Below, piece by piece: positions 2,291 through 64,000 of a stretch of DNA of 64,000 bases (the stretch's first letter is position 1; every line of letters begins with the position of its first letter). The notes under the pieces were generated by a model. The model saw nothing but the letters and a program-made list of their open reading frames with translations. It was not told the origin of the DNA and ran no database searches. Both the position numbers and the translations under genes were made by a program. Source of the DNA: an uncultured Myxococcales bacterium (GTDB lineage Bacteria; Myxococcota; B64-G9); NCBI GenBank assembly GCA_964640665.1, contig CAZXHT010000002.1, positions 38,567 through 102,566 of the forward strand. Direction: 5' to 3'.

Positions 2291-2299
2291 GCCTGACTG

Positions 2300-3400: not shown

Positions 3401-3403
3401 ATA

Positions 3404-38192: not shown

Positions 38193-38298
38193 AGCTTCTA
38201 CCTCTGGAATACGCTGACTCCAGCCTTGCGGGCGGAGTTCGGCTTCTCGTCGGGGATGGTCCAGGCAAAGGCCAAAGAGCAGTCGAGCACCAATTTCA

Positions 38299-38553
38299 TC
38301 AGAAGCGGCGTCCTTCATCAATCAACTTACTAATACTCAGGCCGGGTCCCACCCTTTTCCTGATCTCGCGGAACTTTTCCAGGATTTCGGCGAAGTCCGG
38401 TTCATGGTCATCTTCATTATAAGGAACCAGGCGGGCCACGACCTTGCCGCGACGGCGGATGACGAAGGAACGTCCCTTCTCGGTTTCGCGGAGAAGCTCG
38501 GCCAGGCGGGTCTTGGCTTCGAAGGAACCAATTTCATCTTCATGGACAACCAA
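38299..38553 (-). CDS. Phd/YefM-family type II antitoxin (orphan, C-terminally extended)
   Basis: N-terminal IGSFEAKTRLAELLRETEKGRSFVIRRRGKVVARLVP matches Phd/YefM fold consensus; no cognate toxin ORF adjacent. Confidence 0.6.
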   Translation of the reverse strand: MVVHEDEIGSFEAKTRLAELLRETEKGRSFVIRRRGKVVARLVPYNEDDHEPDFAEILEKFREIRKRVGPGLSISKLIDEGRRF

Positions 38554-38781
38554 CTGGAATACCTCCTTGTTGTCTTCTGTAAACCAGTTTATTAAATCAG
38601 TAGAATAACGTCAAGGGAAGAAGGGGACGGCGGAGAAGATCATCACGTGGAAAAGCACCTCGACTCAGATGATTTATTGCCATTTCCTGAAATAGTATCG
38701 GATCTTCTTAATCGACATGTTTCTTGAAGGTCGATGTAGATATTGGTACACTGTTCTTGTAAAAAGATATATTAGCTCTCA

Positions 38782-39426
38782 TTGACACCTCATGGGCTGG
38801 TATTCACGATGAACGACACGCAGATTCGGGAAGGCCTCCATAAAAAATTACTGAAGAGGCATCATATTTGTAAGGATACACTCGTTGTCAACGAGTTGGG
38901 CCTGAGACATGGTACTAACCGGGCTGACATTGTTGTAATAAATGGGAACCTTGTCGGATACGAGATCAAGAGTGACAAAGACTCATTGCACCGACTCAAA
39001 GAACAAGTACCCGCGTATACCTCGGTTTTTGACTGGTCTTCGGTGGTGGTTGGCACTCGACACAAGACGGTGATTGAATCGTTGGTGCCTGACAACTGGG
39101 GAGTAATAGTGTCATACCAAGGTCCCAGAGGCGGTGTCCACTTTGAAACGCTACGTGTGGCTCGCAGGAACCAAGCAGTGGATCCTTTCGCGATTGCACA
39201 ACTACTCTGGCGAGATGAAGCCGTGGCTATCCTTGCGGAGAAAGATGTGCCAGCGCGAGTACTGCGACAGTGCCGTTCTGTGCTCTACAAGCATCTCGTG
39301 GAAATGCTCAGTCTATCGGAATTGCAGAGTCGGGTCAGGGCTTTCCTGAAGAACCGTAGAAACTGGCGACATCCCGCACAACCTTTTCAAGATGGTGGTT
39401 TGTGCCGACCCACCGCCAAGTTGTAA
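38782..39426 (+). CDS. PD-(D/E)xK-type nuclease-fold protein (MmcB/sce7726-like)
   Basis: Core RADIVVINGNLVGYEIKSDKDS gives D...E-x-K arrangement typical of restriction-endonuclease-like fold; 214 aa. Confidence 0.5.
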   Translation: MTPHGLVFTMNDTQIREGLHKKLLKRHHICKDTLVVNELGLRHGTNRADIVVINGNLVGYEIKSDKDSLHRLKEQVPAYTSVFDWSSVVVGTRHKTVIESLVPDNWGVIVSYQGPRGGVHFETLRVARRNQAVDPFAIAQLLWRDEAVAILAEKDVPARVLRQCRSVLYKHLVEMLSLSELQSRVRAFLKNRRNWRHPAQPFQDGGLCRPTAKL

Positions 39427-40453
39427 GGTTGCCCGTTGTTTCAGTGCCGCCTGCGCAGCCTTTAATGTACTCGTCCCCTTTTGAGAAACTGTCCCCACAG
39501 TAGCCTTGTGAATCCATGACTGTTCGGCAATGGCCTTTGTACTGCCCGAATTTATGGTCTCGGACATTCGGTCCTTTGACCACAAACCAGGCATCATCGA
39601 TTGCGTACCTGATGCTTGCCGATGGCTTCACCTTTCGCATGTCCACCAACAGAACCTGCGGGTGGCTGATTGTATAGTCTCCAAAGGTGGGGATTCGAGA
39701 ACTACCAAGCCTGCTGGCTACTTTCTTGTAAAGAAGCCATTCATAGCGTTCAATAACTGAAGGACTATGCTTCACTTCTGCCATTGACTGTGGAAACGAG
39801 GCACCTAGAAGGATGAATGTTCTCCACTTCTTCAGGTATGGTATTCGTTCGATGATCGCTTGCACGAGTTTGCTGAAGCCTTCAAGAGGGAGGAAATTGG
39901 GTGACCCCAAGTCGAGGACGAGGTCACACTCATTTGCCCTCATCTCCATGAGCTTCAATAACTTATTGAGGTTGACCTCAAGGCTTGATCTGTTGGCTAG
40001 TTCAATTCCTATACGTAGACAGAGACCTTTTTTATCCTTGCTGATAGCACGCTTGACTGAACTCTGGTAGCGATGATCTCTCTCCAGCCCAGTTACAGGT
40101 ACCGCATGACATTTCTCAGCTCGGAGTTCATTGAAAACATAGTCGACCGGGTGCCTTCGGCTCTTCATCATTGTCTTCGAATCCAACAGATTGAGATCTA
40201 CAAAGCAAGGCTGTTGTCCCCACTTTGTACTGACTCGCTTGGCGAAGGGTTCCAGGTGCTCATCGACTGTCCTCTTGTCAGACTGTGCCTCAAAATCGAA
40301 ACCGATTTCCGGAACCTCTATGAACGGAGTAAGTGAACGCTTTGCTGACTTGGATAGCCGCAGCACGGCCTGATACTCCCCCTGTTTCCATCGGAGGCAC
40401 GGAACATAATGTTCATGGTCGAATCTCATCGTAAACCTCCTTTCACTGTCCAA
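39335..40453 (-). CDS. Uncharacterised 372-aa protein (last gene of HTH/ImmA operon), C-terminal Cys cluster
   Basis: Long ORF with 11-bp overlap with upstream XRE/ImmA gene; C-terminal HCx9CGDx9C pattern; no recognisable catalytic motif. Confidence 0.5.
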   Translation of the reverse strand: MDSERRFTMRFDHEHYVPCLRWKQGEYQAVLRLSKSAKRSLTPFIEVPEIGFDFEAQSDKRTVDEHLEPFAKRVSTKWGQQPCFVDLNLLDSKTMMKSRRHPVDYVFNELRAEKCHAVPVTGLERDHRYQSSVKRAISKDKKGLCLRIGIELANRSSLEVNLNKLLKLMEMRANECDLVLDLGSPNFLPLEGFSKLVQAIIERIPYLKKWRTFILLGASFPQSMAEVKHSPSVIERYEWLLYKKVASRLGSSRIPTFGDYTISHPQVLLVDMRKVKPSASIRYAIDDAWFVVKGPNVRDHKFGQYKGHCRTVMDSQGYCGDSFSKGDEYIKGCAGGTETTGNLTTWRWVGTNHHLEKVVRDVASFYGSSGKP

Positions 40454-41735
40454 ATCGGACCTCGGTGAATTGCTTCCTCACCTCGCCTAGTCCCACCATG
40501 TCTTTGAGGATTACGTAATTGTTCGCCTCTTTTCTTATCCTCCCTGCGATGATAGCGGTGCCTATCTTGAGCTTAATCGCTGCTTCCCTGATGGCCTCCT
40601 CGGTTCTAACATATCGAGCCAGAGCTGTTTCCCACATGTCATCAGGGATAAGCATATTCCCAGCGAAGTCATTGGCCTCCCGCTCCACGTCATCACCCTC
40701 TATGTCGAGGTCATCGAAGATGTCTTCAATCTTCCCTTTGCGTAGATGCTTGACCACATGGGCCAACTCGTGAAAAAGGACAAACCAAAAATTATCAAGT
40801 CTATCATACCGCAACGTCATACCGATAACTGGGTGTCCGTCTCTAAGAAGAAAAGTAGCTCCATCCAGATATGTCCTTGGAAGATGAGGTTCAAAAACAA
40901 GAGAGATGCCAGATTTTGCCAAGTACTCCTTGGCCAATTGTGGCCCATTAGTTTGTTGACTCATCTGCGCCAGCTCACGAAACCACCTAACTGACAGTCC
41001 CTTGCGTTCAAAATCGCCTACGTCTTTCTCCATGCCAGAGAGCAGGAGAATCCGACATTGCCAAGCGATGAGAGCATAGGTGTCCATATTTCTGCCCATA
41101 CGGGCTCGCTGTCGGAGAAGGGCTGGCTGTCGCAAGGGCATTGCCTTCTCGATGAAATCCTTCACAAGTTCATCTGCACATGACATGGCCGTCGACAGTG
41201 AGCCTTTGAAGTCCTCAAACCAGTTCCGACGATACATTTCTTTTACTGGGAACAAACTCCAATCCAGTTCTTTGGGATCGCCTTTGTATGCCCTGGTAGG
41301 AGTCCCAACAATTTCGGCAACTTCACTGATGTTTAGGTTAAGGGTCCTCGCCACTTGTGTGATCCTCTGCAAGCTTGCTGAGGAATAATATTCAGCCTCA
41401 TACCTTTGGACTTGCTGCTCCTTCACGCCGAGCATTTCAGCCAGTTCTCGTTGGGATAGACCCTTGGCAATCCTCGCTTGGATGAGTACCGTTGGCATTT
41501 GTTCTAGAGACGCCGCACTTAATACCGTGATCGCACCGGATTCCAGTGCTTCATATTCACGAATTTGATCGGAGAGGCTCAAGACTTCACTTTCCAATGC
41601 GCTAAATTCGGCCTTTGCTAGAACTGCTGAACCCGTGCGTTGTGCAGCTTCCTTGATGTCAAAGGCCTCTACCGCATCTTTGAGTTTCCGATACTGAGCC
41701 CTTGTTATTCTATACTGCCGGTCATTAGTAATCAT
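40443..41735 (-). CDS. XRE-family HTH domain fused to ImmA/IrrE-family zinc metallopeptidase
   Basis: HTH_XRE (IAKGLSQRELAEMLGVKEQQVQRYE) at aa ~95-150; HEXXH (FHELAHVV) plus EREANDFAGNMLIP downstream, diagnostic of COG2856 ImmA/IrrE. Confidence 0.8.
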   Translation of the reverse strand: MITNDRQYRITRAQYRKLKDAVEAFDIKEAAQRTGSAVLAKAEFSALESEVLSLSDQIREYEALESGAITVLSAASLEQMPTVLIQARIAKGLSQRELAEMLGVKEQQVQRYEAEYYSSASLQRITQVARTLNLNISEVAEIVGTPTRAYKGDPKELDWSLFPVKEMYRRNWFEDFKGSLSTAMSCADELVKDFIEKAMPLRQPALLRQRARMGRNMDTYALIAWQCRILLLSGMEKDVGDFERKGLSVRWFRELAQMSQQTNGPQLAKEYLAKSGISLVFEPHLPRTYLDGATFLLRDGHPVIGMTLRYDRLDNFWFVLFHELAHVVKHLRKGKIEDIFDDLDIEGDDVEREANDFAGNMLIPDDMWETALARYVRTEEAIREAAIKLKIGTAIIAGRIRKEANNYVILKDMVGLGEVRKQFTEVRFGQ

Positions 41736-41749
41736 TCAGTCCTCCATCC

Positions 41750-42229
41750 TCACATGAGTCGGACACGGACAATGCCTTTCTGCTTGCCCGTGTGCCTGTC
41801 CTTCTGGAAATACTCCACGAAGGTTCTTCGTCCATTCGCAAATGCGCTCGATGGGAATAACTCACCCTCGAATTTGTCCTTCTGGTTTTTTCGGCTGTCG
41901 CTGAAATCTAGTAGGACCGGGTCTAACTTCTTGGCGTTGACACCTACGGGGTCCCAGCAGGCATCGTAATCACCCGGTTCCGGCTTCCCGGTAACAAAAC
42001 TTCCGTCGATGTAGACCGTTTTACACCCAGCTCTCTGAAGGGCCTCTATACTTGCTTTCAATCCTGTAAAAAGCATTTGGCGTCGTGGCGTCGTGGCAAA
42101 TACCTTCTTAACCTCATCAAGTGTTGCATCGTGTACCCCAGGAGGCAGGACCGGCCAAGGACTCTTGATGTCAACCAGCTCAGGAATCATGACACAATTA
42201 TATTGTTGTGTTGATAAATGATCCAGCAA
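41750..42229 (-). CDS. Putative minimal nucleotidyltransferase (pol-beta superfamily)-like protein
   Basis: IDGSFVTGKPEPGDYD fits hG[GS]x9-13DhD NTase motif; 159 aa; first gene of operon, 14 bp upstream of XRE/ImmA gene. Confidence 0.4.
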   Translation of the reverse strand: MLDHLSTQQYNCVMIPELVDIKSPWPVLPPGVHDATLDEVKKVFATTPRRQMLFTGLKASIEALQRAGCKTVYIDGSFVTGKPEPGDYDACWDPVGVNAKKLDPVLLDFSDSRKNQKDKFEGELFPSSAFANGRRTFVEYFQKDRHTGKQKGIVRVRLM

Positions 42230-42487
42230 AATGTCATAAAAAAATCAAAATGCCATGAGGCGGGAGTTGTTCTTCGAACGAGGCGTGTCAATAAACATAT
42301 TTGTATTCGATCAAGCCAGCGATCGGGCGCGTCGAATTCACCGTTGTCGTCGGGTCGGGCCGCAATCTGCACACCGGGGACACTCCCGATAGCCACCGGC
42401 ACATCGGAAGTCGGCAAGCCACAGACACGCACCGCGACCCAGTGCCGCCCGTGCCACCACCGCCACAGAACGATGGGGTGTTTGGTC

Positions 42488-44107
42488 TTACGTTGTCAAT
42501 CGCTTCAAATTGTCAACTGCTTGGACAACGAGCTCATCTGGAAAAGCGCCACGACTCAGCAATTCAATTGCATTTGTTGTCTTGCACAGTCCGGGTTTCA
42601 GGCGATAGTCGAAAAGGATGTCACTGCCCTGATAATGCTCTGAGAAATGGTACCTTTCAAAATTGTGATCAACCAACGTGCCAATCGCAAGGTCATGGGT
42701 GGCAACAATAACAAGGTTGCTCTTTGCCAAGTATTGGATGACTGCCGCAGCAGCCGCGACTCGCTCCACGGGATTTGTCCCCCTGAACAATTCGTCAACA
42801 ATGAAAAGGCAGTTGTTTCGGCTTGTGCTATACCCAACCAGTTTCTGGATGACATCAACCTCTACCGCAAACAAGCTCTTGCCGTTTTCAATGTCATCTG
42901 CAATGTCGATTGAAGTTTTAATGTAAAACAGACAGGCTTCGTACTTGCGTGCCACAGACGTATTGATGGTTTGAGCAAGAATCGCGTTCAATGCGACAGT
43001 TTTCAAAAACGTGGTCTTCCCGGACATATTGGAACCGGTAATCAACATGCTTGATCCATGGATTTCGAATGAATTGCCGATCGCCCGGTCTAGCCTCGGA
43101 TGAAGAAGGTTCTCGGCCTTGATCAGGCAAGGTGTATCGACAAATTCTGGTTTGCACCAGACGGGCTGGCTTCTGCGGTATGATGCAATTGAAATGCAGG
43201 CATCGATCAAGCCGATGGATCGAAAGAGAATGCGAAGATGCTTCTGGCTGTTTTCAATTTGTTCCCGGAGGGAGCCATAAGCGAGAACTTTTCTGAGTGT
43301 CAGGATGTTGAGATAGTCCAGCAGTTGTGTCGGATCTCTGAGCTGTATATACCTGCATTTTCTGGCGAGCGGGAGACACTGGTTGATGCTGGCGGAAAAT
43401 TCGACTTCGGAGGGAAAGTTTTTCCCGATAAGTTCGTGCAGATTTGCGCTCGATTGTATGAGTCTACCGAGACAGGAGAGGACATCGATTTCGTAGCCAA
43501 AAACCTCTTCGTACTTGTAGTGAACCATTAAGTTTATTAAAAACATCACAAGGGCGGCAGCCCAAAACAGAGGCTTGAAGACGGCCACAACAACGAACAC
43601 AATCAGGGCGATTGTACAAAGCCTGACCACTGTAATTGACAACGGAGGCTTGGGGAGGTTCTTCCAGATAAGCCTCGGTAGAGAAAATGAAGTATCATCG
43701 TCAAGGGAGAGAAGCTCAACTTGTGCTTTCTCGCGCAATTCAGCGTCGGTTTCAAACAACTCGACAAGTGGCTCCGGGACAGTTATCGCCTCTGAGTTGA
43801 GGCATGGCGTGACGAGAGTCTGATAGAGGTACTGCGATCCAGGGCTCGAGGTTGCGTGGTCGATAGATCCAAACACAAAATTGATATCAAGATCAGACCT
43901 TGTCCTACTGTCCAGCGAGAATCTGTTGAAGTCATCCGGGTTCTCTGAATCGATCTGTTCATAGAATTTGCACTTCTCGATTGGCCGCGGCGAACTCCGG
44001 CGATTTCCCCATTCCCGGCGCAGCCTCTTGAGTTGTTCCGCCTTTTTCGAAAAGATGCAGATTCGAGAGAGAACCGATCTGAAATGAGCCGCCGCGTTGG
44101 TGAGCAT
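42488..44107 (-). CDS. Membrane-anchored MutS-domain-V-like ABC ATPase
   Basis: Walker A ITGSNMSGKTTFLK, Walker B LFIVDELFRGTN, VIVATHD; two predicted TM helices (aa ~165-215); no mismatch-binding N-domain. Confidence 0.7.
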   Translation of the reverse strand: MLTNAAAHFRSVLSRICIFSKKAEQLKRLRREWGNRRSSPRPIEKCKFYEQIDSENPDDFNRFSLDSRTRSDLDINFVFGSIDHATSSPGSQYLYQTLVTPCLNSEAITVPEPLVELFETDAELREKAQVELLSLDDDTSFSLPRLIWKNLPKPPLSITVVRLCTIALIVFVVVAVFKPLFWAAALVMFLINLMVHYKYEEVFGYEIDVLSCLGRLIQSSANLHELIGKNFPSEVEFSASINQCLPLARKCRYIQLRDPTQLLDYLNILTLRKVLAYGSLREQIENSQKHLRILFRSIGLIDACISIASYRRSQPVWCKPEFVDTPCLIKAENLLHPRLDRAIGNSFEIHGSSMLITGSNMSGKTTFLKTVALNAILAQTINTSVARKYEACLFYIKTSIDIADDIENGKSLFAVEVDVIQKLVGYSTSRNNCLFIVDELFRGTNPVERVAAAAAVIQYLAKSNLVIVATHDLAIGTLVDHNFERYHFSEHYQGSDILFDYRLKPGLCKTTNAIELLSRGAFPDELVVQAVDNLKRLTT

Positions 44108-47670: not shown

Positions 47671-47818
47671 GTTTCCTCCTTCGTAAGAGACACCATCATG
47701 TAGCCCAAAGAGCCGATCATTGCAAGAGCGGGAGCCGTCCAAAATTTTCCAAGCGAAAATCACGCTTGGCCTAAATCTTTTCTTTTTAACCCCGCCGATT
47801 GGTGATAAGCTCTCGGAC

Positions 47819-50800
47819 ATGCTGCGAGGATGTGGGTGTTTACATCCGGTCCGATGGACCGGTTGCAGAACGTTACTGTTCTTGCACCTGGTGTCTTGCG
47901 CGAATCCGGTCTTGGCCGGGACGCGGGAGGCGGGGCCGCTTATCGATTTGCCCGGCAAATTGACTTCGGCGGCCATGGAGATCATCGACGGAGAACTCGA
48001 AGAACTTGGCAAGGATCCCGACTGGGATGCCCTGCACGCCTTCCTGGCCTCGCAGCCCGCTTCGCCCGTGGCCCGGTACGCGCGGGCCTCCGCTGATTTG
48101 AAACGCTGCGCCGTTTGGGACGGGGAACGCGGCCTCGAGACGCTCGCGGCCTTGCGCAAGGAAGCCGCCCAGCGGGGTGATCGGGTGCTGGCCGCACGGC
48201 TGCTTCTGGCCATCGGCCGCGGGCAACTCGCCCTGCGACACAACGCCCGGGCGCTGTCCTCCCTCGAGACCGCGGCAGCCGAGCTGCGCAGGTTGGGAGA
48301 TTCCCGGGGGCTGGTAGAGGCGCTTTTCCAACTCAGCAGCGGTCTGATCAACAATTCCCGCCGGCCGCGGGACGCCTTGAAATACATCAACGAGTTGCAG
48401 GTGCGGGCCGCGCGCCTCGACATGCGCGATTATGAACAGTTAGCCGCGCGTCTCTACGATGAATGGCGCAAGGGAATAGACGAAGTTGACGACTACTTCG
48501 GCCGGGCCCGTAACCGCTTGCAGTACTTCCCGCCGGCCCTCGGCATTTCCGAAGACGCGGACCTGGTGGCTTTTACTAACGGTGTGCTGGTCATGAACGG
48601 AGACACCGACGATCAGGTAGTGTCCGCCCGTCCCGAATTCGTGTCCTTCGACGGCCTGTTTACCCGCAAGTTGAAGCTGCCGGGCGACTCGCTGCAAATA
48701 CGCGGATCGCTGGTGGACGATCGCGGCCGGCTGTGGGCCGCAACCAACCGTGGCCTGTACCGCTACGACGGGGAGGGTTTCGTACACCTGTACAATCCCG
48801 CTCTTGCAGACGAGGAGGGCAACGATCTCGCAAGACAGGTAGCACGCGAGCGCGGCCGGATCTCGACTATGGAAGTTGCCTTATCTTCAAATATCGTAAA
48901 CGAGATAAAACAGGGCCCGGATGGTCGTTTCTATCTGGCAACAGCATCCGGGGCGTCTGTTTGTGATCGTGGCTTCAAGAAATTTCAGTATTTCACGCCG
49001 AAAAACGCTCCGCTGCCCGCGTCTGTCGAACGCATCGCCAAGGCTGCGGACGGATCGTTAGTGATTGCCTGGAGAGACGCCTACGCAGTGCGCCTGCCCG
49101 GGGGCGCCTGGAAAAGACGCGCCTTCGAGTTTCCCAAGGCCGCCGGCCGCCCGCACGGTAAGCTTTTTGGTCTTCTGGTCGACTCATCCGGGCACCCCTG
49201 GGTGCACGGTCTGGGGGGCGGACAGGAACTCTCCGGAACACGAGTTGTGCGCTATGTTGATCGACGCTTTTCGGCCATGACCCGCAACGTCAACCACGTG
49301 CTCAAGGCGAGTGATGGCGCCTATTGGTTCGCTTCAACCGATGGTCTCTGTCGCCAATCGGGTGCGCATTGCGACACGCTCAACGCCGGCCGCTGGATGC
49401 CGGCCGAGTGGTCGCTGGATCTGTTCGAGGGGCCGCCAGGAAACGTGTGGGTTTCTGTCTACCAGGGGGGGCTGATTCGCATCATGCCTCCCAACTACCG
49501 GCACTACGGGCTTGCCGAGGGTTTTCGCCAGCCGGTCAACGAAACAATCCGCGAACTTGCGGGTTACCTGTATTTCACAAACGGAGAGGGGTTGACGCGA
49601 CTGGATCCCGCCAGCGGCCGCATAGACAACTTCGCCTCCGAGGCAGAGGGCATACCCTTAGGAGAGCTGAAGATATCGGAGAAGTTGAGTGATGGGCGGC
49701 TGGCCCTGGCCGGTCCGGACATACTGGCGCAAAAGGCGATCGTCCTCTTCGATGGGCGGCATGGCCGCCTGGTGGACGAACACAATGGATTGCCGGCCGA
49801 AAGCCTGATCTCCTTTTGCCAGGACGAGGCCGGCAAGCTCGAGGTCGCCTACGGCACGGGTTTGTGGCAACTCGACCTGCAGACGCTGCGTGCTCGGCCG
49901 GACCCCGACTGGCGAGCGATCGAGGGCATACAGATTGTGGATCTTGCCTGCGCCGCCGACGGATCCGCCTGGGTGTTGACCCCTGATGCCGTCTATCGAC
50001 GGGATAGCAACGGCGTGCGACACATCGATCTCGGGGGTATTGGTTTGCACGGCAAGCCGCGCCAACTGATTGCGTCGGTGCGGGCCGGGGTCTTCGTTTT
50101 CGGACAGCGCCAGATATTGAACCGCCGAAATGACGCCTGGAAACAGATACCGGTCGATGCCGACAAATTCGACTTCCGCGTCCGCGACGTGGTCGAAGAC
50201 GATCGCGGCCTGCTCTACTTCGCCACCGAAAGCGGCGTTTTCGCCTTCAACGGTGAGAACTGGACCCGCCTGAGCGCGCGTGACGGATTGGTTTCCAGGA
50301 CAGCTTTCCAAATGTTGGCGCGCGGGGACGGGTTGTGGATATCCGGAGACGGAGGCGTCACTTGCTGGAACTGGCCTGAACAGCAACCGCCGGAGACGTT
50401 TCTGTTGTTCAGAGGCGATGCTTTCTTCGCCGATCCCGACGGGAGAGCGCTTCGCTTCCGGGCTTCAAACGGAATAGAAAAGGAAGGTTGGGTGCAGCTA
50501 CGCGGGACGGCCGGCCTGTTCGAGCTGCCCGAAAAGCAGGCCGGCTCGTTTTTAACGCCTGCCAGACGAACGGGTCTCCTGTTGACTGATAACGCAGGTG
50601 CAGGCGATTCGACGGCCTCCGGGATGAAGGTAGTAAGGTCGAACAGGCTTGAGTTTTTCGCTTCGGCCGGTGTGCCTTTCATGGACGATACACCCGATGA
50701 GTTCTCGTACCACTACCGGGTCGACGCGGGTGCCTGGTTTCCCGCCCGGGGAAGGAAGATTGTTGTCGGCGACCTGAAAGATGGAGTGCACCGGGTGGAG

Positions 50801-53800
50801 ATCCGCGCCACGGATCCACGCCTGGTTTCGGATCCCACACCGGCTCGATGGTCCTTCATGGTCGAGACGCCGATGTCCCCCTGGCTGCCGGCCGCCTTCG
50901 GTCTTTCGGCCGGCTTGCTTTTGTTCTTTGCGCGCCGACGCTGGATGTGGTTGCTGCAACGCTTGATGCACAGGCACTTCCATCCTCTCGACCCGGCATC
51001 ATTCGCCCCGCAGCGGCCGGCCAGCGGGCCCGATTTCATTGGTCGTGGGGAGCAGTTGGAAACTCTTTTGCGCGTGGCCGCGGATACCGGGGGGGTGGCC
51101 GTGGCATGGGGGGAGAGAGGAACAGGAAAACACTCGTTCATGCTGCGGCTCGCCGCGCAGCTGCGCCAGCGACACGTACATGTCGTCGAGATGGATCTGG
51201 CCGTTACGACTGCCGGCGGCGACGTCGCCAACCTGGTTGGCAGCCTGGGCCGCACCTTGCTGGACGTTTTAGAGTCAGACGGAGTTCGGATCGATTTGGC
51301 GCCGGCCATGGCAGGGGAATCGCTGTTATCCTTGCCGGGCAGCCTTGGCGGGGAGTCACCCGCCAAGGACATGCCGTCTCCACCCGGATCGTCGGCCTCG
51401 GGTGATAATCCGTTTGAGGTATTGAGTCGGACATTGCGGCATCTTGATCAGCAGGCGCCGGGTGAACGAGTGGCCTTCCTGATTGACAATGCCGAGGTGC
51501 TCGGCGTGGCCCTCGATTCGGACGCCGGCTATGGCTCTTACTTGTTTCCCTTTATGCGCTCGCTGGTTCAGGAACGTTCCTGTGTAACCATGGTGCTGGC
51601 CATCGAGGGCCGCTGGTTCAACCTTTCGCGGATTTACAGGCAGCTGTTTGCCTTCGCATCTCCGCTGGCCATCGATCGTCTCTCGCGGGAAGAAAGCAGC
51701 CGCCTGCTTACGGGCAGGCTCAAGAATCAGGCAATCGTATCCGAGCGGGATCTCGGGCGGCTTGTGGATCTGGCCGGCGGACATCCTTTCTTGCTGCAGC
51801 AAATTGGCAAACATCTGGTTGATGAAATGAACCGCCGGCGGACCAACGTGTGCTCGGGCAAGCTCGTCAAGGGGATATCGACCGTCCTGGTCGATGAAGT
51901 CGACAGCCAGCTGCAACGGATGTTTTTCGATCTTTCGCGCGAGGAAAAACTCGTGGTGACGGCCTTGTGCACAGGCGACCGTCGCGCAAGCAAGCTGGAC
52001 ACGATTGCGGCCCGTCTCGCGGAGGCCGGCGGCAAGTTGCTGTACGAGGAAATCCGCCGGGCCGTTTTGTCGCTCGCCAAGGACGGCACGCTCTTGAAAG
52101 ACGAGGATTACTTCTCCCTGCAAGGTGACCTGTATCGCAGCTGGGTGCATGCGCACCACTCTTTAGCCTCTGTGTTGGAGGAGTCGCATGACTACGTGGG
52201 CCACTACCAGCTCGTCGAAAAGCTGGGCTCCGGCGGCATGGGAGTAGTTTACAAGGCACGCAATCTGGTAACCGGTGCCACGGTGGCACTCAAACTGCTG
52301 CGGGCCGAGCTGTCGGAAAAGAAGCGTTCCCGGCGCCGTTTTCTGCGCGAAGCCAGACTGGGAAAGAGCATTCGGCACCCCAATATAGTGCGCATTCTCG
52401 ATTACGGAGAGCAGGCCGGACGACTTTACCTGGCCATGGAGTTCGTGGACGGCAAGACCTTGACCCTCTGGACTCGCAAGGCCGGCGGCCTGTCGGCACA
52501 GACAGTGTTGGAAATAGGCCGCCACCTGTTGTCGGCGCTGGTTGCCGTCCACGAGGTGGGGATCGTGCACCGTGACGTGAAAAGCGACAATGTCATGGTG
52601 ATAAGCGCGAAGGGCAACTCTATAAAGTTGATGGACTTCGGCCTGGCGGTGGGCAAGGACGTCTCTCGCATGACCCGCGCCGGCTCGTTGCTGGGCACCG
52701 TCGCCTACATGTCGCCGGAGCAGGCGAGGGGCAAGGTGGTTGACGCCCGTTCGGATCTCTATTCACTGGGGGTGGTACTGTATGAACTTTGTGCCGGCGC
52801 ACCGCCTTTTGCCGGCCCCGATGCCGCGGTGCTGCATTCTGTGATATACGATCTGCTCCCGCCGCTTGATGAGCGGGTTAAAAATATTCCTGCTGAGCTT
52901 TCGGCCTTCATCGGCAGGCTGCTCGCCAAGAATACCGACCAGCGTCCATCCAGTGCCCGCGAAGCTCTCGAGCAGCTCAACGGTCTAGCCGAACGACTTG
53001 GATCTTCCGGAGAAAACCTGTTCATGGGCGAGGCGGCGGCTGATGGCCGAACCGATCGGGGCACGACAAGTGGCATTACATCCGGGACAGAAGTGACCTC
53101 ACACGCACTGGAAACGCTCAAGTCACAGAGCATCTTGTTGTCTTCGCTGTCGACGGCCACAAAGGAATCTATCTCCTCGCTGGCGGACGCCACCCACGAT
53201 GCCGCCCGGCTGTTGCTATATCGCATCTCGGCCGATGTGGCTCGTGGCTCGATCGAAGGCGGCGTCTTGAGAGATTGCCTCGAACAGGTTTGCGACACGC
53301 TCGAGGCGAACCGCGGCCTGGTGGCCCTGGGGAGCGATGATGGAAAGTTCGAATGTGTAGCGTCCTTCAACCGTGATGTAGAACAGATTGAGAAGCTTCC
53401 GGTCTTGTTCTCATTGTTTCACCAGTGTGTAGGCAAGCAGAGCGGTCTCCTGTACACGGCCCCGCATGGTTCTGTCGAGGATGGAATGGGCACCGCCGTT
53501 TTCGCACCGCTCTGGGCCGCGGACAAGATCCTTGGCGCTTTCATGGTTGAACGTAGCGGAGCCGAGGCGCGTCCATTCGATTTTCATAGCCTGGAGTTGA
53601 TGGCAGGCGTCGGCTACCTGTTGGGACTCGGACTGGAACGCGAGAGGCTGTACAAACAGGTGCTGAATCAGGAACGCCTGGCCGCGGTGGGACACATGCT
53701 GGCCGGGGTGGCGCATGATATGCGTTCTCCAATGGCTGTCATTTCCGGCTACGCAGAGTTAATTACGTTTGAAAAAGACTCTTCCAATCGGGAGAAGAAC

Positions 53801-54340
53801 TGCGCCGTTATCGTGCGCCAGGTGGGAGAGATGAACCACATGATCGGCAATCTGCTGGCTTACGTTCGCGGGGACACGCAACTCAATCCCGCCCAAATCC
53901 GGGCAGAAGAACTCGCCGTGGAGATCGAGGAAACCTTCCGGCCGCAATGCGAGCCGCGGGGCATCGAGTTGAACATCAGCGCCGGGGAGGGGCCGGCGCG
54001 GGTCGATGTCTCCCGAACCAAGCGCATCATCTACAACCTGGGCAAAAACGCCGTGGAGGCCCTCGGTGAATCCGGCAAATTGGAGATACGCCTTGAGAGC
54101 CGGGACAACGGACTCGAAATCAGGATCCGCGACAACGGGCCTGGAATCCCAACCGAGGTGCGTGAGCATATGTTCGACCCGTTCTTTACAAGCGGCAAGA
54201 AAGGAGGAACCGGTCTTGGCCTGGCGATCGTGAGTCGCTTCATACACGACCAGGCCGGGTCGATATCCACACACTGTGGGGAAGGTGGCGGCACGACCAT
54301 GATTGTCCACATCCCCGATGTAACCAGCCGTAAAAGCTAA
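47819..54340 (+). CDS. Multidomain sensor kinase: TPR-like + beta-propeller/Y_Y_Y - TM - P-loop ATPase - Ser/Thr protein kinase - GAF - histidine kinase (HisKA+HATPase_c)
   Basis: Reg_prop/Y_Y_Y repeats (~48.7-50.86 kb), TM helix (~50.87-50.94 kb), Walker A GERGTGKHS (~51.11 kb), STK motifs GSGGMGVVYKA / HRDVKSDN / DFGLA / SPE (~52.2-53.0 kb), GAF (~53.2-53.65 kb), H-box AHDMRSP and G2 box GTGLGLAIV (~53.7-54.3 kb); start set at ATG 47819 (track start 47720 is upstream extension). Confidence 0.85.
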   Translation: MLRGCGCLHPVRWTGCRTLLFLHLVSCANPVLAGTREAGPLIDLPGKLTSAAMEIIDGELEELGKDPDWDALHAFLASQPASPVARYARASADLKRCAVWDGERGLETLAALRKEAAQRGDRVLAARLLLAIGRGQLALRHNARALSSLETAAAELRRLGDSRGLVEALFQLSSGLINNSRRPRDALKYINELQVRAARLDMRDYEQLAARLYDEWRKGIDEVDDYFGRARNRLQYFPPALGISEDADLVAFTNGVLVMNGDTDDQVVSARPEFVSFDGLFTRKLKLPGDSLQIRGSLVDDRGRLWAATNRGLYRYDGEGFVHLYNPALADEEGNDLARQVARERGRISTMEVALSSNIVNEIKQGPDGRFYLATASGASVCDRGFKKFQYFTPKNAPLPASVERIAKAADGSLVIAWRDAYAVRLPGGAWKRRAFEFPKAAGRPHGKLFGLLVDSSGHPWVHGLGGGQELSGTRVVRYVDRRFSAMTRNVNHVLKASDGAYWFASTDGLCRQSGAHCDTLNAGRWMPAEWSLDLFEGPPGNVWVSVYQGGLIRIMPPNYRHYGLAEGFRQPVNETIRELAGYLYFTNGEGLTRLDPASGRIDNFASEAEGIPLGELKISEKLSDGRLALAGPDILAQKAIVLFDGRHGRLVDEHNGLPAESLISFCQDEAGKLEVAYGTGLWQLDLQTLRARPDPDWRAIEGIQIVDLACAADGSAWVLTPDAVYRRDSNGVRHIDLGGIGLHGKPRQLIASVRAGVFVFGQRQILNRRNDAWKQIPVDADKFDFRVRDVVEDDRGLLYFATESGVFAFNGENWTRLSARDGLVSRTAFQMLARGDGLWISGDGGVTCWNWPEQQPPETFLLFRGDAFFADPDGRALRFRASNGIEKEGWVQLRGTAGLFELPEKQAGSFLTPARRTGLLLTDNAGAGDSTASGMKVVRSNRLEFFASAGVPFMDDTPDEFSYHYRVDAGAWFPARGRKIVVGDLKDGVHRVEIRATDPRLVSDPTPARWSFMVETPMSPWLPAAFGLSAGLLLFFARRRWMWLLQRLMHRHFHPLDPASFAPQRPASGPDFIGRGEQLETLLRVAADTGGVAVAWGERGTGKHSFMLRLAAQLRQRHVHVVEMDLAVTTAGGDVANLVGSLGRTLLDVLESDGVRIDLAPAMAGESLLSLPGSLGGESPAKDMPSPPGSSASGDNPFEVLSRTLRHLDQQAPGERVAFLIDNAEVLGVALDSDAGYGSYLFPFMRSLVQERSCVTMVLAIEGRWFNLSRIYRQLFAFASPLAIDRLSREESSRLLTGRLKNQAIVSERDLGRLVDLAGGHPFLLQQIGKHLVDEMNRRRTNVCSGKLVKGISTVLVDEVDSQLQRMFFDLSREEKLVVTALCTGDRRASKLDTIAARLAEAGGKLLYEEIRRAVLSLAKDGTLLKDEDYFSLQGDLYRSWVHAHHSLASVLEESHDYVGHYQLVEKLGSGGMGVVYKARNLVTGATVALKLLRAELSEKKRSRRRFLREARLGKSIRHPNIVRILDYGEQAGRLYLAMEFVDGKTLTLWTRKAGGLSAQTVLEIGRHLLSALVAVHEVGIVHRDVKSDNVMVISAKGNSIKLMDFGLAVGKDVSRMTRAGSLLGTVAYMSPEQARGKVVDARSDLYSLGVVLYELCAGAPPFAGPDAAVLHSVIYDLLPPLDERVKNIPAELSAFIGRLLAKNTDQRPSSAREALEQLNGLAERLGSSGENLFMGEAAADGRTDRGTTSGITSGTEVTSHALETLKSQSILLSSLSTATKESISSLADATHDAARLLLYRISADVARGSIEGGVLRDCLEQVCDTLEANRGLVALGSDDGKFECVASFNRDVEQIEKLPVLFSLFHQCVGKQSGLLYTAPHGSVEDGMGTAVFAPLWAADKILGAFMVERSGAEARPFDFHSLELMAGVGYLLGLGLERERLYKQVLNQERLAAVGHMLAGVAHDMRSPMAVISGYAELITFEKDSSNREKNCAVIVRQVGEMNHMIGNLLAYVRGDTQLNPAQIRAEELAVEIEETFRPQCEPRGIELNISAGEGPARVDVSRTKRIIYNLGKNAVEALGESGKLEIRLESRDNGLEIRIRDNGPGIPTEVREHMFDPFFTSGKKGGTGLGLAIVSRFIHDQAGSISTHCGEGGGTTMIVHIPDVTSRKS

Positions 54341-54448: not shown

Positions 54449-55225
54449 TTGAAAGAACAAGGTATTGCCAATATGCGCAACGTATATTTCGACATCGACG
54501 ACATGACCAAGGAAATCGAGGCGCTGCAGACCAAGAAAAAGAAGGACTCACACGCGTTCCAGGAAAAGTTCGAAGTTTCCTGGATCTATCATGAAAATGC
54601 GCTCGAGGGCACCGTGTTGGACATCTTCGACTTGAAGGCGGCGCTCGATCACGCCGCGTTGGAGGACGGTGTGCTGATTCCCGTCTACCAGCGCATCCGC
54701 AACCACAAGAATACCATAGAAAAGATCAAAAACAGCGCCACTGGCAACTCGCGCATGCCGACACTCTCGTTCATCAAGGAAGTGCACCAAGTGCTGAGCT
54801 ACGGACTTGACGAGCGGCCGGGGGGGCAGTACCGTAAAGATGTTCCCATCCATCGTAGTTATTACCATGAGATCATGGCTCCCTCGCGCATCTCATATGC
54901 CATGAACAAGCTTGTCAGGGATCTCAAGACCAAGGAATTCAAGCAACTCCATCCACTTCAGCAGGCGGCCGAGGTGCATTTTCGCCTGATGCACATCTTT
55001 CCTTTCTCCCGGGAATGCGGCAAGCTGGCGCGCCTGATCATGAACTTTTTCGTAATTCGCGCGGGCTACCTGCCGATCATAATCCCCGCCGTGGAAAGGC
55101 AACATTACTACGAAGCCTTACGCGTGGGTCCCAAGGTGGTTCACGATCTGATCGTCAGCTGCATGGAACAGACGATCAATCTCTCGCTGCGCTTCTTCGA
55201 TGGCGGCACCAAAGAGATCTGGTAA
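54449..55225 (+). CDS. Fic/DOC-family protein with degenerate active-site motif
   Basis: Fic fold-like region AAEVHFRLMHIFPFSRECGKLARLIMNFFVIRAGY aligns to HPFx(D/E)GNGRxxR but with His->Phe, Asp->Arg, Asn->Cys substitutions. Confidence 0.6.
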   Translation: MKEQGIANMRNVYFDIDDMTKEIEALQTKKKKDSHAFQEKFEVSWIYHENALEGTVLDIFDLKAALDHAALEDGVLIPVYQRIRNHKNTIEKIKNSATGNSRMPTLSFIKEVHQVLSYGLDERPGGQYRKDVPIHRSYYHEIMAPSRISYAMNKLVRDLKTKEFKQLHPLQQAAEVHFRLMHIFPFSRECGKLARLIMNFFVIRAGYLPIIIPAVERQHYYEALRVGPKVVHDLIVSCMEQTINLSLRFFDGGTKEIW

Positions 55226-61175: not shown

Positions 61176-64000
61176 CTATTTCGCGGGCTTGATCGTCATG
61201 CTGGTCCCGGACGAGTAGGCGCTGAACTCGGGGGCGTACATGGGCTGGACTGTGGCCGGGCCTATTCTGAAGCTGCCGGCGATGGCCGCCCGCATGCGGT
61301 AGCTGAAAGGGTACTCGCCCTGGGGCAGGTTTTCGAAGAAGAAGTTCATGCCGCTGTCGCGCACCTCTTCGTACCAGTAGATGCCCAGCGCCCAGCGGTG
61401 TCGACTGGTGATGCTGACCGGCTCGCAGCCGGCCGGGCGCGGATCGCGCAAGTGAACGTACTGAACCGGGTGCTTGGAGGTCAGCATAAGATGCACCTCG
61501 ATCTCGTCGCCCGGCTCCAGCCGGGCGCCCTCGGCCAACGGCTGAAGGACCGTCTCGCGTCCGGATTTTACACGCTTGAAGTATTTACGCGTGACTTTCA
61601 GGAAATCGCCGCTCGCTTCGGCCGGCAGCTTCTCGGTCGAGAAGTGCCAGGTGGCCGAGGCGAACATGTAGCCCGGGGTGTGTTTCTCGACCACGACGGT
61701 GGAAGTCGTTACAGGATCCACCTCGGGGCCGGGAATGACGATCTGGTTCTTCTTGCCTGTGTACTCGTCGGGCTCGAAGACGAAAGACTTTTTCAAATCT
61801 CCGATGGTGACGGTCGCAGCCTCGCGCACACCGAGTTGGTTGGTCTGCTTCAGGTATTTGGCCAGCGAGTAGATTACCTCGGCCGTGGCCCGGGTGGACT
61901 TCCAGTGGTTGAGCTTCTTGTTCAGAAACAACCATAGCACCAGCCCGTCGAGTTTTTCGTTGTTGGGCATCAACTCGAGCAGGGTGCGCACGGCGAAGGC
62001 GTGCGTTTCGATTGTGTCGTTGTACCACAGCCAGCCGCGATCCTCCGGGGCCCAGAAGGTGCCCATGTCCTTTTCCGTCCTGGCCGAGTCCATGACGCTC
62101 TCCCACACGAGGCGGGCCTTTTTATCGCGATCCATGCGGTGCAGCGTTAAAGCCAGGTAACCCTTGAGATAGGGAGAATGCTTACGCCAGTGCTCGAATG
62201 AGAAATCGAGCATGCGCCGGCGGTCTGTGTCCGAAAAGACCGAGTTGGTCCAGCTCACGTCCGGGTAGTTCGATAGCACGTAGTTCAGGAAAGTAATGAA
62301 CTCCCAACAGCTGTAGTGGGTCATGCACTCTTCGACAATATGATCCACATAGTGTTGCTTCATGTAAGACCAGGCGCGCTGGACCATATCTTTGGGAACA
62401 TCCACGCCGAACTCGAGCGCCTTGGAGAATCCGTAGAGTATGTAAAGAGTCATGTAGGGCGAAGGCGGTCCGCCCGGAAACCAGGGGAAGGCGCCGATAG
62501 AGGTCTGGGCTTTTTTCAACTTGGCCAGCGAGGCGTCGCGCTGAGCGCGGGTTATCCTCGGATCGAGCACGTTGATTAGCGGATACTCGCTCTTGCGCCC
62601 GCCCTGGGCCTGCTGCAACCAGGGAGTTTCCTCCAAGGCCATCTTGCGGTTGGGATCGTCCGCGTCCCAGCGCTCTAAGCGCGTTTTGCGCGCGGCGAAT
62701 TTCTTGGCCATGCGCTCGATGGCGGGAAAGTCTTTGTACATCGAGGCAAGGATCCCGGTCGAGATGAAACGGTTCAGGGTCTGCTCGGTGCACTCGTAGG
62801 GATAGTTGACAAGATAAGGCAAGGCCGAGAGGACCGAGTAAAAGAGCTGCGCATCTAAAGTGACCACCATCTGCTCGTTGATCAGTGTCGGGTCGTCGTT
62901 CCTGGCGAGATCCGGAAACTTCATCACCCGGCGAGCATCGCCCTTGAGACTCACGAAACGCGATTGGGACAGGTGAAGTCGCGAGGGAAGGATGGGAAGC
63001 GGCCTCAGCTCTCCGTCAGAGAACGCTCCCGACCTGGCCGCCACCTTGAAGGCCACCATTCCGACCCTGGGAGGGGTCTTGACGGCGAAGGTCAAATTTG
63101 TGCCGGAGCCGGCCTTGACCGAGAAGCTCTTCTTGACATCGTTCGGGGCGAGTCCGAAGTCTGCAAGCAGGCTCTTCTTGCTGTCCGCGTCGACGATGTC
63201 GAATGTCAGCGTGCCTTGCATGGGCTTATCGGATGCATTGTTGACAACCACCTTGAGCTGCGCCTGATCGCCCTCTCGCAGGAAGCGCGGCAGGTAGGGG
63301 CGCACCATCAGATCCTTGACACTGCGGGCCTCTTTCTTGAGAGACCCCGAGGAAAGGTCGCGGGTAATTGCGTGCACCCAGACGTTCCACGAGGTGACCG
63401 AGTCGGGCACCTCGTATTCGAAAGTCACCGAGCCGTCGGTGCCGGTGAGCAGTTGCGGCTGGAAGAAGGCCGTCTCCGAGAAATTGCTGCGCAACGCGAC
63501 CGGCGCGGCTGGCTTGCTTTCACCACCGATAGCATTTTTGCCGGCCTTGTCTCTCGATCGGTCCTCACTGTCCGAGATCTCCCCGGCCTCTTCGGCCGGG
63601 GCCTCGTCCAGTGAGGCAGTCACCTCGGCCGATTTCTGCTTCTCGGATTTGCAGGGGGCCGCCATTGGGGCCTTGGTCGCGAGTGACCGCCGCAGCTTGC
63701 CGCGGTGCCCCCGGCGCCTTCCCGGTCCGCCGATGCCGTAGCCCGAGTAGAAATAGAGACGGTCGACCTGAAGAGAAGGGTAGCCCGGCGGCGGCGCGAA
63801 TCCGTCGCAGCGCACCCATGAACTGCGCGCCTGGCCGAGGCTGGTGCGCACCGAAGCGCATCCGGTGCGCGAGGGAAACAGCGAAAGCGGCACCGGAGGA
63901 TTGTGGGGCGCGAAAGAATCCAGGCTGCGATCATACATGTAGGCCAACACCTCGGCGGCGGCCACCGCGGTGTCCTTGCCGGCCGGGCCTGTCACCTTGA
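61176..64000 (-). CDS. Alpha-2-macroglobulin-family protein (C-terminal ~940 aa; N-terminus beyond window end)
   Basis: A2M bait/MG region ETAFFQPQLLTGTDGSVTFEYEVPDSVTSWNVW, thioester-domain motif YPYECTEQT (CxEQ), A2M receptor-binding-type C-terminus. Confidence 0.8.
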   Translation of the reverse strand, partial: KVTGPAGKDTAVAAAEVLAYMYDRSLDSFAPHNPPVPLSLFPSRTGCASVRTSLGQARSSWVRCDGFAPPPGYPSLQVDRLYFYSGYGIGGPGRRRGHRGKLRRSLATKAPMAAPCKSEKQKSAEVTASLDEAPAEEAGEISDSEDRSRDKAGKNAIGGESKPAAPVALRSNFSETAFFQPQLLTGTDGSVTFEYEVPDSVTSWNVWVHAITRDLSSGSLKKEARSVKDLMVRPYLPRFLREGDQAQLKVVVNNASDKPMQGTLTFDIVDADSKKSLLADFGLAPNDVKKSFSVKAGSGTNLTFAVKTPPRVGMVAFKVAARSGAFSDGELRPLPILPSRLHLSQSRFVSLKGDARRVMKFPDLARNDDPTLINEQMVVTLDAQLFYSVLSALPYLVNYPYECTEQTLNRFISTGILASMYKDFPAIERMAKKFAARKTRLERWDADDPNRKMALEETPWLQQAQGGRKSEYPLINVLDPRITRAQRDASLAKLKKAQTSIGAFPWFPGGPPSPYMTLYILYGFSKALEFGVDVPKDMVQRAWSYMKQHYVDHIVEECMTHYSCWEFITFLNYVLSNYPDVSWTNSVFSDTDRRRMLDFSFEHWRKHSPYLKGYLALTLHRMDRDKKARLVWESVMDSARTEKDMGTFWAPEDRGWLWYNDTIETHAFAVRTLLELMPNNEKLDGLVLWLFLNKKLNHWKSTRATAEVIYSLAKYLKQTNQLGVREAATVTIGDLKKSFVFEPDEYTGKKNQIVIPGPEVDPVTTSTVVVEKHTPGYMFASATWHFSTEKLPAEASGDFLKVTRKYFKRVKSGRETVLQPLAEGARLEPGDEIEVHLMLTSKHPVQYVHLRDPRPAGCEPVSITSRHRWALGIYWYEEVRDSGMNFFFENLPQGEYPFSYRMRAAIAGSFRIGPATVQPMYAPEFSAYSSGTSMTIKPAK

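Follow-up and report, generated by a model that had tools for sequence, protein, structure and literature searches.

In bacteria, the interplay between Hanks-type Ser/Thr kinases (STKs) and two-component systems is known mostly from separate proteins that act on one another. A precedent for an STK that regulates the input domain of a histidine kinase (HK) is DegS (PMC3033389). Both activities reside in one chain in the cyanobacterial cbSTKIII/HstK dual kinases, in which an N-terminal STK is followed by GAF and by a C-terminal HK (PMC2176072). On the side of sensing, the sensor dimer of BT4663 is reported to close in a scissor-like manner (Lowe et al. 2012, cited in PMC8534201), and on the side of signal transfer, it is known that STAND NTPases can lose their catalytic residues and persist as scaffolds (iSTAND) in the MoxR-vWA ternary systems of multicellular and social bacteria (Kaur et al. 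2020, PMC7159879). Here we analyzed a 64,000-nucleotide stretch of DNA (64 kb; the window) from an uncultured Myxococcales bacterium (GenBank assembly GCA_964640665.1, contig CAZXHT010000002.1, positions 38,567 to 102,566), in which the gene at 47819-54340 encodes a putative receptor-type dual kinase (Table 1). In the family to which it belongs, a single chain unites both kinases with a GAF gate and with a defined sensor fold predicted to be extracellular.

The frame from 47720 to 54340 on the forward strand is open throughout, without any stop codon or frameshift. When 5.8 billion protein clusters were searched, seven full-length relatives were retrieved, P0001 with 83% identity and P0002-P0007 with 46-51%, while the remaining matches covered the kinase domain only. 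The eight proteins align collinearly from end to end without breaks at a mean column identity of 61%, which supports the claim of the sequence-only reading that the gene encodes a single polypeptide and not two or more separate genes. As judged from this alignment, the open reading frame (ORF) is real, intact, and selected for over its full length. Of 1.84 billion representatives, ten matched at E<1e-30, including two fragments, and the GTDB species genomes scanned contained six carriers, all of them metagenome-assembled genomes (MAGs) labeled Myxococcales, Myxococcota or Deltaproteobacteria. The architecture is thus rare, as had been proposed, and each of its domains is of a known kind. Giant mosaic kinases and domain shuffling on such a scale are typical of Myxococcota. 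No description of the architecture was found in the literature searched, and the protein is presently annotated as 'protein kinase' or in generic JGI terms only; the domain map in Table 1 would improve this annotation.

The first ~1,000 residues are predicted to be exported. In every homologue the N-terminus is hydrophobic up to a few small residues at the end of the stretch, and the hydropathy profile contains one further strong transmembrane (TM) segment at ~1019-1044 with a positively charged cytoplasmic flank. The pairs C511/C518 and C667/C711 are invariant and Cys pairs of this kind are confined to the exported part, and they therefore fit an oxidizing compartment. The topology prediction, with its signal-like segment and a single TM helix at ~1022-1044, agrees with the extracytoplasmic propeller and one TM helix of the sequence-only reading. 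A sequence resembling a lipobox, LVSC, is found within the signal peptide (residues 24-27, 47888-47899); since its Cys is not conserved in the homologues, a lipoprotein reading was abandoned.

The exported half was modeled with AlphaFold2 (AF2; residues 1-1045, mean predicted local distance difference test (pLDDT) score of 74). The model contains 61 predicted strands between residues 248 and 905, which fits ~14 blades, and Reg_prop passes its Pfam cut-off in this region (34 bits vs 20.4). A Foldseek search of the PDB with the model returned as its top 15 matches the periplasmic sensors BT4663, BT3049, and BT4673 of Bacteroides thetaiotaomicron (E 7e-28 to 1e-23), with alignments of ~850 columns on sensor chains of ~745 residues, and phmmer gave direct but weak sequence matches to 3v9f and 4a2l. 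On the basis of the model, the exported fold is that of the Bacteroides hybrid two-component sensors (HTCS). The distant sequence relatives of the exported half (21-26% identity) are Reg_prop proteins, most of which also carry Y_Y_Y, and their outputs are diverse.

The region that directly follows the TM helix had been read as a P-loop ATPase. Pfam matched AAA_16 at residues 1073-1226 with 27.6-31 bits, which is under the cut-off of 32.6, and AAA_22 on the isolated module with 28.7 bits, above the cut-off of 27; ATPase_2 was also among the matches. An exhaustive phmmer search with residues 1045-1460 against the 1.84 billion representatives yielded 685 relatives at E<=1e-3. Short relatives with canonical motifs pass the Pfam cut-offs of nSTAND1, nSTAND2, and AAA_22 and also match ATPase_2; P0191, for example, passes nSTAND1 (39.7 vs 27.1) and nSTAND2. 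The module of the window protein connects to the nSTAND-passing relatives at phmmer E values of 1e-8 to 1e-13. Since the short canonical relatives pass these three models, the module is assigned as a STAND-type NOD. A phmmer comparison of the module with PDB sequences gave noise only. The helical part and beta-hairpin at residues 1289-1454 are confidently modeled (pLDDT 70-90), and the secondary structure of the C-terminal part looks winged-helix-like. Between the Walker motifs lies a Ser/Gly/Pro-rich low-complexity insertion (residues 1150-1199, 51266-51415), whose length ranges from 35 to 55 residues among the homologues and whose last residues are an invariant NPF in each of them.

The Walker motifs of the module are deviant. 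Walker A reads GERGTGK-H-S (residues 1098-1106); the Lys (K1104) is retained, and the following [ST] position is His, Asn or Gln in all eight family members. Walker B reads FLID-N-AE (residues 1220-1226), in which D1223 is kept in seven of the eight members and the second acidic position is Asn in all of them. The GxP motif AGGHP (residues 1319-1323) has G1320, G1321, and P1323 invariant in the family, and this column reads G/A-G-H/Q-P throughout the relatives. For a census of the motifs, 147 of the 685 module relatives were aligned to the family hidden Markov model. Both Walker A (G.RR.GK[ST]S) and Walker B (D-E-[FY]-[DE]) are canonical in 77 relatives, and a further 40 have a canonical Walker B, with Walker A lying beyond the alignment. 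Walker B is D-[DE] in 117 of the 140 relatives aligned at this position and deviant, mostly D-N, in the other 23, a set to which the window protein and the other members of its family belong. Walker A of the sister groups has V, L, T or R in place of the Lys itself. The loss of Walker residues is graded from the family to the sister groups, and it therefore resembles relaxed selection on hydrolysis. These motifs suggest that the module is very probably not a working ATPase and that it serves as a scaffold or at most as a nucleotide binder. Thus, of the earlier proposal, the homology to STAND-like P-loop proteins stands, and the working ATPase does not.

We also considered that the module could be a functional STAND ATPase, in which ligand would cause ADP/ATP exchange and oligomerization and hydrolysis would reset the receptor. 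Its homology to canonical ATPases would fit such an active switch, as would the conservation of K1104, of D1223 in seven of the eight members, and of GxP, and a conserved Glu stands two residues past the Asn of Walker B (DNAE). However, both the Mg-coordinating Ser/Thr of Walker A and the second acidic residue of Walker B are replaced in every family member. Furthermore, the nearest sister groups are without the Walker A Lys, and it is the 77 more distant relatives that keep GK[ST] and D[DE]. We therefore consider an active switch unlikely.

The sequence-only reading of a complete Hanks-type kinase and a HisKA/HATPase_c transmitter was borne out when the catalytic residues were checked. The kinase has GSGGMGVV (1470), VALK (1489), HRDVKSDN (1584), DFG (1606), and SPE (1632), with K1492, D1586, N1591, D1606, and E1634 invariant in all eight proteins, and its activation loop DFGLAVGKDVSRMTRAGSLLGTVAYMSPE is near-invariant in the family. 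In the transmitter (HisKA 43.4 bits; HATPase_c 85.6 bits), the H-box HDMRSP (1966), the N box NLGKNA (2073), G1 DNGPG (2105), and G2 GTGLG (2130) are all present, and the family alignment shows no variation at H1966, N2077, D2105/G2107/G2109, F2119/F2122, and G2130/G2132/G2134. Judged by motif, both kinases are catalytically complete, and most of their key residues are invariant. The best model scores of the transmitter are those of AtoS and ZraS, under their cut-offs, and are therefore a weak hint at an NtrC-type partner. Kinase-domain identity is 55-64% within the family that shares the cassette, 38-47% to receptors of the Reg_prop-module-STK type, and 38-43% to generic kinases, so the domain is nearest to the kinases of other receptors that combine module and kinase (44-64% vs 38-43% for generic kinases). 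The linker that follows contains 28% Ser+Thr, compared with 11% in the whole protein (13-28% vs 7-12% across the eight homologues). The GAF domain, which had been proposed as well, matches GAF_3 at 1817-1941 with a marginal 25.8 bits, slightly under the cut-off of 27, and with 36-37 bits in the relatives P0143 and P0144. AF2 models one continuous long helix from GAF into DHp (pLDDT 70-88), and the CA domain is also usable in the model.

One of the two kinases could be functional and the other a regulatory pseudo-enzyme; for example, the HK could serve solely in a phosphatase or scaffolding role, or the STK solely in dimerization. This would be in keeping with the finding that no member has an adjacent response regulator and with the existence of relatives that dispense with one or the other half: P0149 has the same sensor and module without the HK half, and P0148, P0152, and P0160 carry GAF-SpoIIE without the kinase. 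Nevertheless, every catalytic motif is present in both domains of the window protein, and the key residues have stayed invariant over 46-83% identity, which makes a single output rather improbable.

Taken together, the window protein may be a single-pass receptor-type dual kinase with a propeller sensor, an inactivated STAND scaffold, and an STK that controls the HK in cis, a reading to which we give roughly even chances. By analogy with BT4663, an extracytoplasmic ligand, most likely a glycan or an envelope-derived polymer, would rearrange a receptor dimer or oligomer in a scissor-type closing, and the single TM helix would relay the change to the NOD-like module. The inactivated module would then act as a juxtamembrane scaffold for oligomerization and coupling, perhaps nucleotide-binding and not an ATP-hydrolyzing timer, and would gather the kinase domains. 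The RD kinase could trans-autophosphorylate its near-invariant activation loop (S1616, T1619, T1627) and then modify cytoplasmic targets, probably together with its own S/T-rich linker. Phosphorylation and any GAF ligand would set the activity of the HK through the continuous GAF-DHp helix, and the HK would pass the signal to an orphan response regulator encoded elsewhere. The role of a multi-input hub, as proposed earlier, is plausible.

Several observations weigh against this reading. The AF2 model of the cytoplasmic half (residues 1045-2173), built from an alignment of eight sequences, is poor (pLDDT 60): it fails to resolve the core of the P-loop module and even turns Walker B into a helix; because of this, the fold of the module rests on sequence homology. 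The retained K1104, D1223, and GxP are compatible with ATP binding or slow hydrolysis, and the phosphorylation of the linker is a pure inference from its composition. Two names given to parts of the sensor half are also affected. The TPR-like repeats of the sequence-only reading correspond to nine helices in the model, but the isolated N-terminal helical domain has no TPR match in Pfam even at E<=10. Its Y_Y_Y domain corresponds to a modeled beta-sandwich, and the conserved motif F.YHYR.D.G.W in the Ig-like region supports it, but Y_Y_Y (PF07495) has no Pfam match at E<=10 in the window protein and none in the precomputed lists of its seven homologues. Since Pfam is silent in both cases, TPR and Y_Y_Y stay structural impressions.

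The deviant module is not confined to the family. When 15 of the 23 sequences with a deviant Walker B were scanned with Pfam (the content of the window family was taken from precomputed lists), all 15 had a kinase or GAF-SpoIIE output, which falls into the three classes listed in Table 1. Reg_prop was found in 12 of the 15, the others being P0144, P0145, and P0146. A hydrophobic segment ~25 residues upstream of the module, usually past SPW or PPW, is present in the deviant sequences with a long N-terminus except P0154. Among the fully canonical module relatives, P0206, P0227, P0236, P0183, P0186, P0215, P0226, P0253, and P0180 likewise have a strongly hydrophobic segment directly upstream of the module together with a long N-terminus. 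From these sequences, the group of STAND ATPases that are tethered to the membrane and carry extracytoplasmic domains seems to be a wider one. P0144 (2,217 residues) carries the module-Pkinase-GAF-HisKA-HATPase_c cassette behind a different N-terminal region of ~640 residues, and an extra NTP_transf_5 nucleotidyltransferase domain at its C-terminus.

One may speculate that the eroded STAND/NOD module defines an undescribed class of single-pass receptors, with an HTCS-type propeller, an SPW-TM-module junction, and interchangeable STK, STK+GAF-HK or GAF-PP2C outputs, in which a nucleotide-independent NOD would drive ligand-induced clustering. We regard this as possible, though doubtful at present. 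If it is true, bacteria would have in such receptors a counterpart of receptor-kinase activation made from NLR parts, and the window family would be the version that turns one extracellular signal into Ser/Thr and His-Asp phosphorylation alike.

Table 1. Features of the dual kinase gene, its downstream neighbor, and the outputs linked to deviant modules (positions are those of the window; residues are counted from ATG 47819).
Feature	Position	Strand	Evidence
Whole gene, putative receptor-type dual kinase; 2,173 aa from ATG 47819, 2,206 aa from TTG 47720	47819..54340, stop codon included	+	
Predicted signal peptide or anchor, aa 1-34, hydrophobic core RTLLFLHLVSCANPVLAG	47819..47920	+	hydropathy; pLDDT <50
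Predicted periplasmic all-helical repeat domain, aa 50-224, nine helices, TPR-like look	47966..48490	+	AF2, pLDDT 75-92
Tandem beta-propeller, Reg_prop type, aa 248-905	48560..50533	+	Pfam, AF2, Foldseek, phmmer
Membrane-proximal Ig-like beta-sandwich at the Y_Y_Y position, aa 940-1015, motif FSYHYRVDAGAW	50636..50863	+	AF2 (sandwich 944-1015), Foldseek
Predicted single TM helix, aa 1022-1044, conserved SPW junction before, RRRW..R..HRH after	50882..50950	+	hydropathy, AF2
Juxtamembrane STAND-like P-loop module, aa 1073-1455, helical and winged-helix-like part C-terminal	51035..52183	+	Pfam, phmmer
Hanks-type RD Ser/Thr kinase, aa 1463-1718	52205..52972	+	Pfam Pkinase 1e-52
Disordered Ser/Thr-rich linker from kinase to GAF, aa 1722-1803	52982..53227	+	composition, low pLDDT
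GAF domain, aa 1816-1941	53264..53641	+	Pfam GAF_3, AF2 pLDDT 70-88
Histidine-kinase transmitter: HisKA/DHp aa 1958-2020 (His1966), HATPase_c aa 2063-2167	53690..54319	+	Pfam
Fic-family gene directly downstream of the kinase gene	54449-55225	+	Pfam 47.6 bits
Deviant module with STK-GAF-HK output: window family, P0143, P0144, P0145, P0146			Pfam
Deviant module with STK-alone output: P0142, P0149, P0150, P0154			Pfam
Deviant module with GAF-SpoIIE (PP2C) output: P0148, P0152, P0160			Pfam

The kinase gene is followed by a gene of the Fic family, which the sequence-only reading had called degenerate. This is the case because its motif reads IFPFSRECGKLAR where HPFx[D/E]GNGRxxR is expected, so that neither the catalytic His nor the GNGR core is retained. 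Among five genomic contexts (L001-L008), Fic adjoins the kinase gene only in the 83%-identical relative, and it is thus an incidental neighbor and not a conserved partner. The other neighbors in the window encode an enoyl-CoA hydratase (ECH), a Na/Ca exchanger, an M1 peptidase, and an acyl-CoA ligase-type enzyme; these recur only in the 83% relative, and four more distant members lie in unrelated neighborhoods. In the five contexts, no conserved neighborhood past the 83% relative and no adjacent response regulator were found. Receivers were also sought by jackhmmer from CheY in all ORFs of at least 70 residues in the window, and none was detected, whereas the receivers in L004 and L014, used as positive controls, were recovered. 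The statement that no response regulator is encoded next to the kinase gene is thereby upheld. In L014 (Guaymas MAG B64_G9), an ORF with two receivers lies at 2289-4400 (+), ~3.6 kb upstream of the family member, and nothing similar was seen in the other loci.

These neighbors bear on the question of whether the protein belongs to an anti-phage or conflict system, as a STAND/NLR-like sensor with a kinase effector and possibly with Fic. Defense systems often contain STAND modules and Ser/Thr kinases, PADLOC matches the protein with PD-T4-6, mad6, and MkoA and, weakly, its Fic neighbor with PDC-S04 and SoFic, and NCBIfam gives partial matches to MADS6 and PglW. The matches of the protein, however, are confined to the generic kinase domain (residues ~1455-1760) and lie far under the family cut-offs. 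The flanking genes are housekeeping genes, and neither Fic nor any other neighbor is conserved beyond the closest relative. Moreover, the sensor is predicted to be extracytoplasmic and is not hypervariable, being as conserved as the cytoplasmic half (46-51% vs 46-52% identity). Because the defense models match the kinase domain only and the sensor is as conserved as the rest, a defense function is rejected as very improbable.

Two further features were seen elsewhere in the window. The stretch 38001-44000 has a G+C content of 0.49-0.51, compared with ~0.58-0.62 in the flanking DNA, and may represent an acquired island; one of its ORFs (42488-44107) has domain V of MutS and no other MutS domain. 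G+C is also low, at 0.45, over the initial 2 kb of the window. Near the window end, a large bacterial alpha-2-macroglobulin-like protein (A2M, bMG10) is encoded at 61176-63995 (-), and it extends past the listed ORF start.

The start codon of the kinase gene requires comment. NCBI holds this protein as P0290 on a contig of 174 kb, with the start called at TTG 47720. In the alignment, however, the six more distant homologues begin right before the signal peptide, and the 150 bp 5' of ATG 47819 are kept in the closest relative without obvious codon periodicity. For these reasons the start at 47819 was retained and marked as uncertain. The intergenic DNA from which the ECH and kinase genes diverge (47671-47818) is conserved with L001 to a degree equal to or above that of the coding sequence, with long invariant runs that include CCATGTTTCCTCCTTCG and TCATGTAGCCCAAAGAGC. 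This conservation suggests a shared promoter or leader and bears on the choice between TTG 47720 and ATG 47819. A promoter and terminator scan of the kinase gene gave counts not above those of shuffled controls. A minus-strand ORF of 626 residues that overlaps the gene was set aside as mostly spurious; the real divergent ECH-family gene starts at 47670. The possibility that two or more genes were joined artificially into this long ORF, by assembly or fusion, for which nothing speaks beyond its unusual length and metagenome-assembled origin, can be dismissed, since the collinear architecture recurs on independent contigs from at least eight samples or MAGs, without stops and with conserved junctions.

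The finding is not a new principle, since all parts are known domains. The family is of interest as a compact system in which to ask how Ser/Thr phosphorylation controls an HK in cis. It also suggests that STAND/NOD modules can be tethered to the membrane right behind an extracytoplasmic sensor and can persist after loss of the hydrolysis motifs, which bears on the reuse of NLR-like oligomerization modules outside immunity. The more interesting lead is the wider set of receptors, apparently not described before, whose interchangeable phospho-signaling outputs are fed by an eroded STAND module directly behind a TM helix.

With respect to the sensor, the closest known systems are BT4663, BT3049, and BT4673 (4a2l/4a2m, 3v9f, 3ott/3va6), which have tandem Reg_prop propellers, an Ig-like domain, and a TM helix, as in the window protein. 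The identity is 12-14%, the window protein has an additional N-terminal helical-repeat domain, and the Pfam Y_Y_Y model is silent on it. The cytoplasmic parts differ: the HTCS of Bacteroidota have an HK, a receiver, and an AraC helix-turn-helix (HTH), whereas the myxococcotal protein has the STAND-like module, STK, GAF, and HK, and no Response_reg or HTH domain was found in it by Pfam. Another propeller-coupled kinase is PknD of M. tuberculosis, in which an extracellular beta-propeller is linked via one TM helix to a Hanks kinase, with the kinase N-terminal and the sensor C-terminal. P0092 and P0113 are Pkinase+Reg_prop proteins, and their propeller-TM-kinase coupling resembles that of the window protein; unlike the latter, proteins of the PknD type have neither a STAND-like module nor an HK. 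The iSTAND of MoxR-vWA, compared by description, are separate proteins of three-gene conflict systems, whereas the module studied here is embedded in a receptor kinase without such neighbors. Similar in layout are the receptors P0142, P0149, P0150, P0154, P0148, P0152, and P0160, of which no description was found in the literature searched: they share the sensor type, the junction, and the deviant module with the window protein, and unlike it they are without the GAF-HK transmitter or without the kinase.

The sequence-only reading had set the protein beside the STK-GAF-HK hybrids of the HstK family, with a propeller sensor and a STAND-like ATPase added upstream. HstK/Alr2258 and Pkn40/Pkn41 (cbSTKIII) indeed share with it a Hanks kinase, at least one GAF, and a C-terminal HisKA/HATPase_c in one chain, and the HstK-type proteins retrieved (P0038, P0057, P0060) also carry AAA_16. 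There, however, AAA_16 comes after the kinase (the order was checked for P0057 only): the kinase of P0057 lies at residues 5-263, whereas that of the window protein begins at 1463 with AAA_16 upstream (1073-1226). In addition, no extracytoplasmic sensor domain is listed for the HstK-type proteins, whereas the window protein is a predicted membrane receptor, and the identity to them is low (24-29% in the GAF-HK half, and 29% to P0057 in the kinase). Because of the inverted order of module and kinase and the low identity, a reading of the protein as an extended HstK does not hold, and the architecture looks like an independent fusion. From these comparisons of sequence, the most parsimonious history would be that a receptor of the Reg_prop-TM-module-STK type gained a GAF-HK transmitter independently of the cyanobacterial family.

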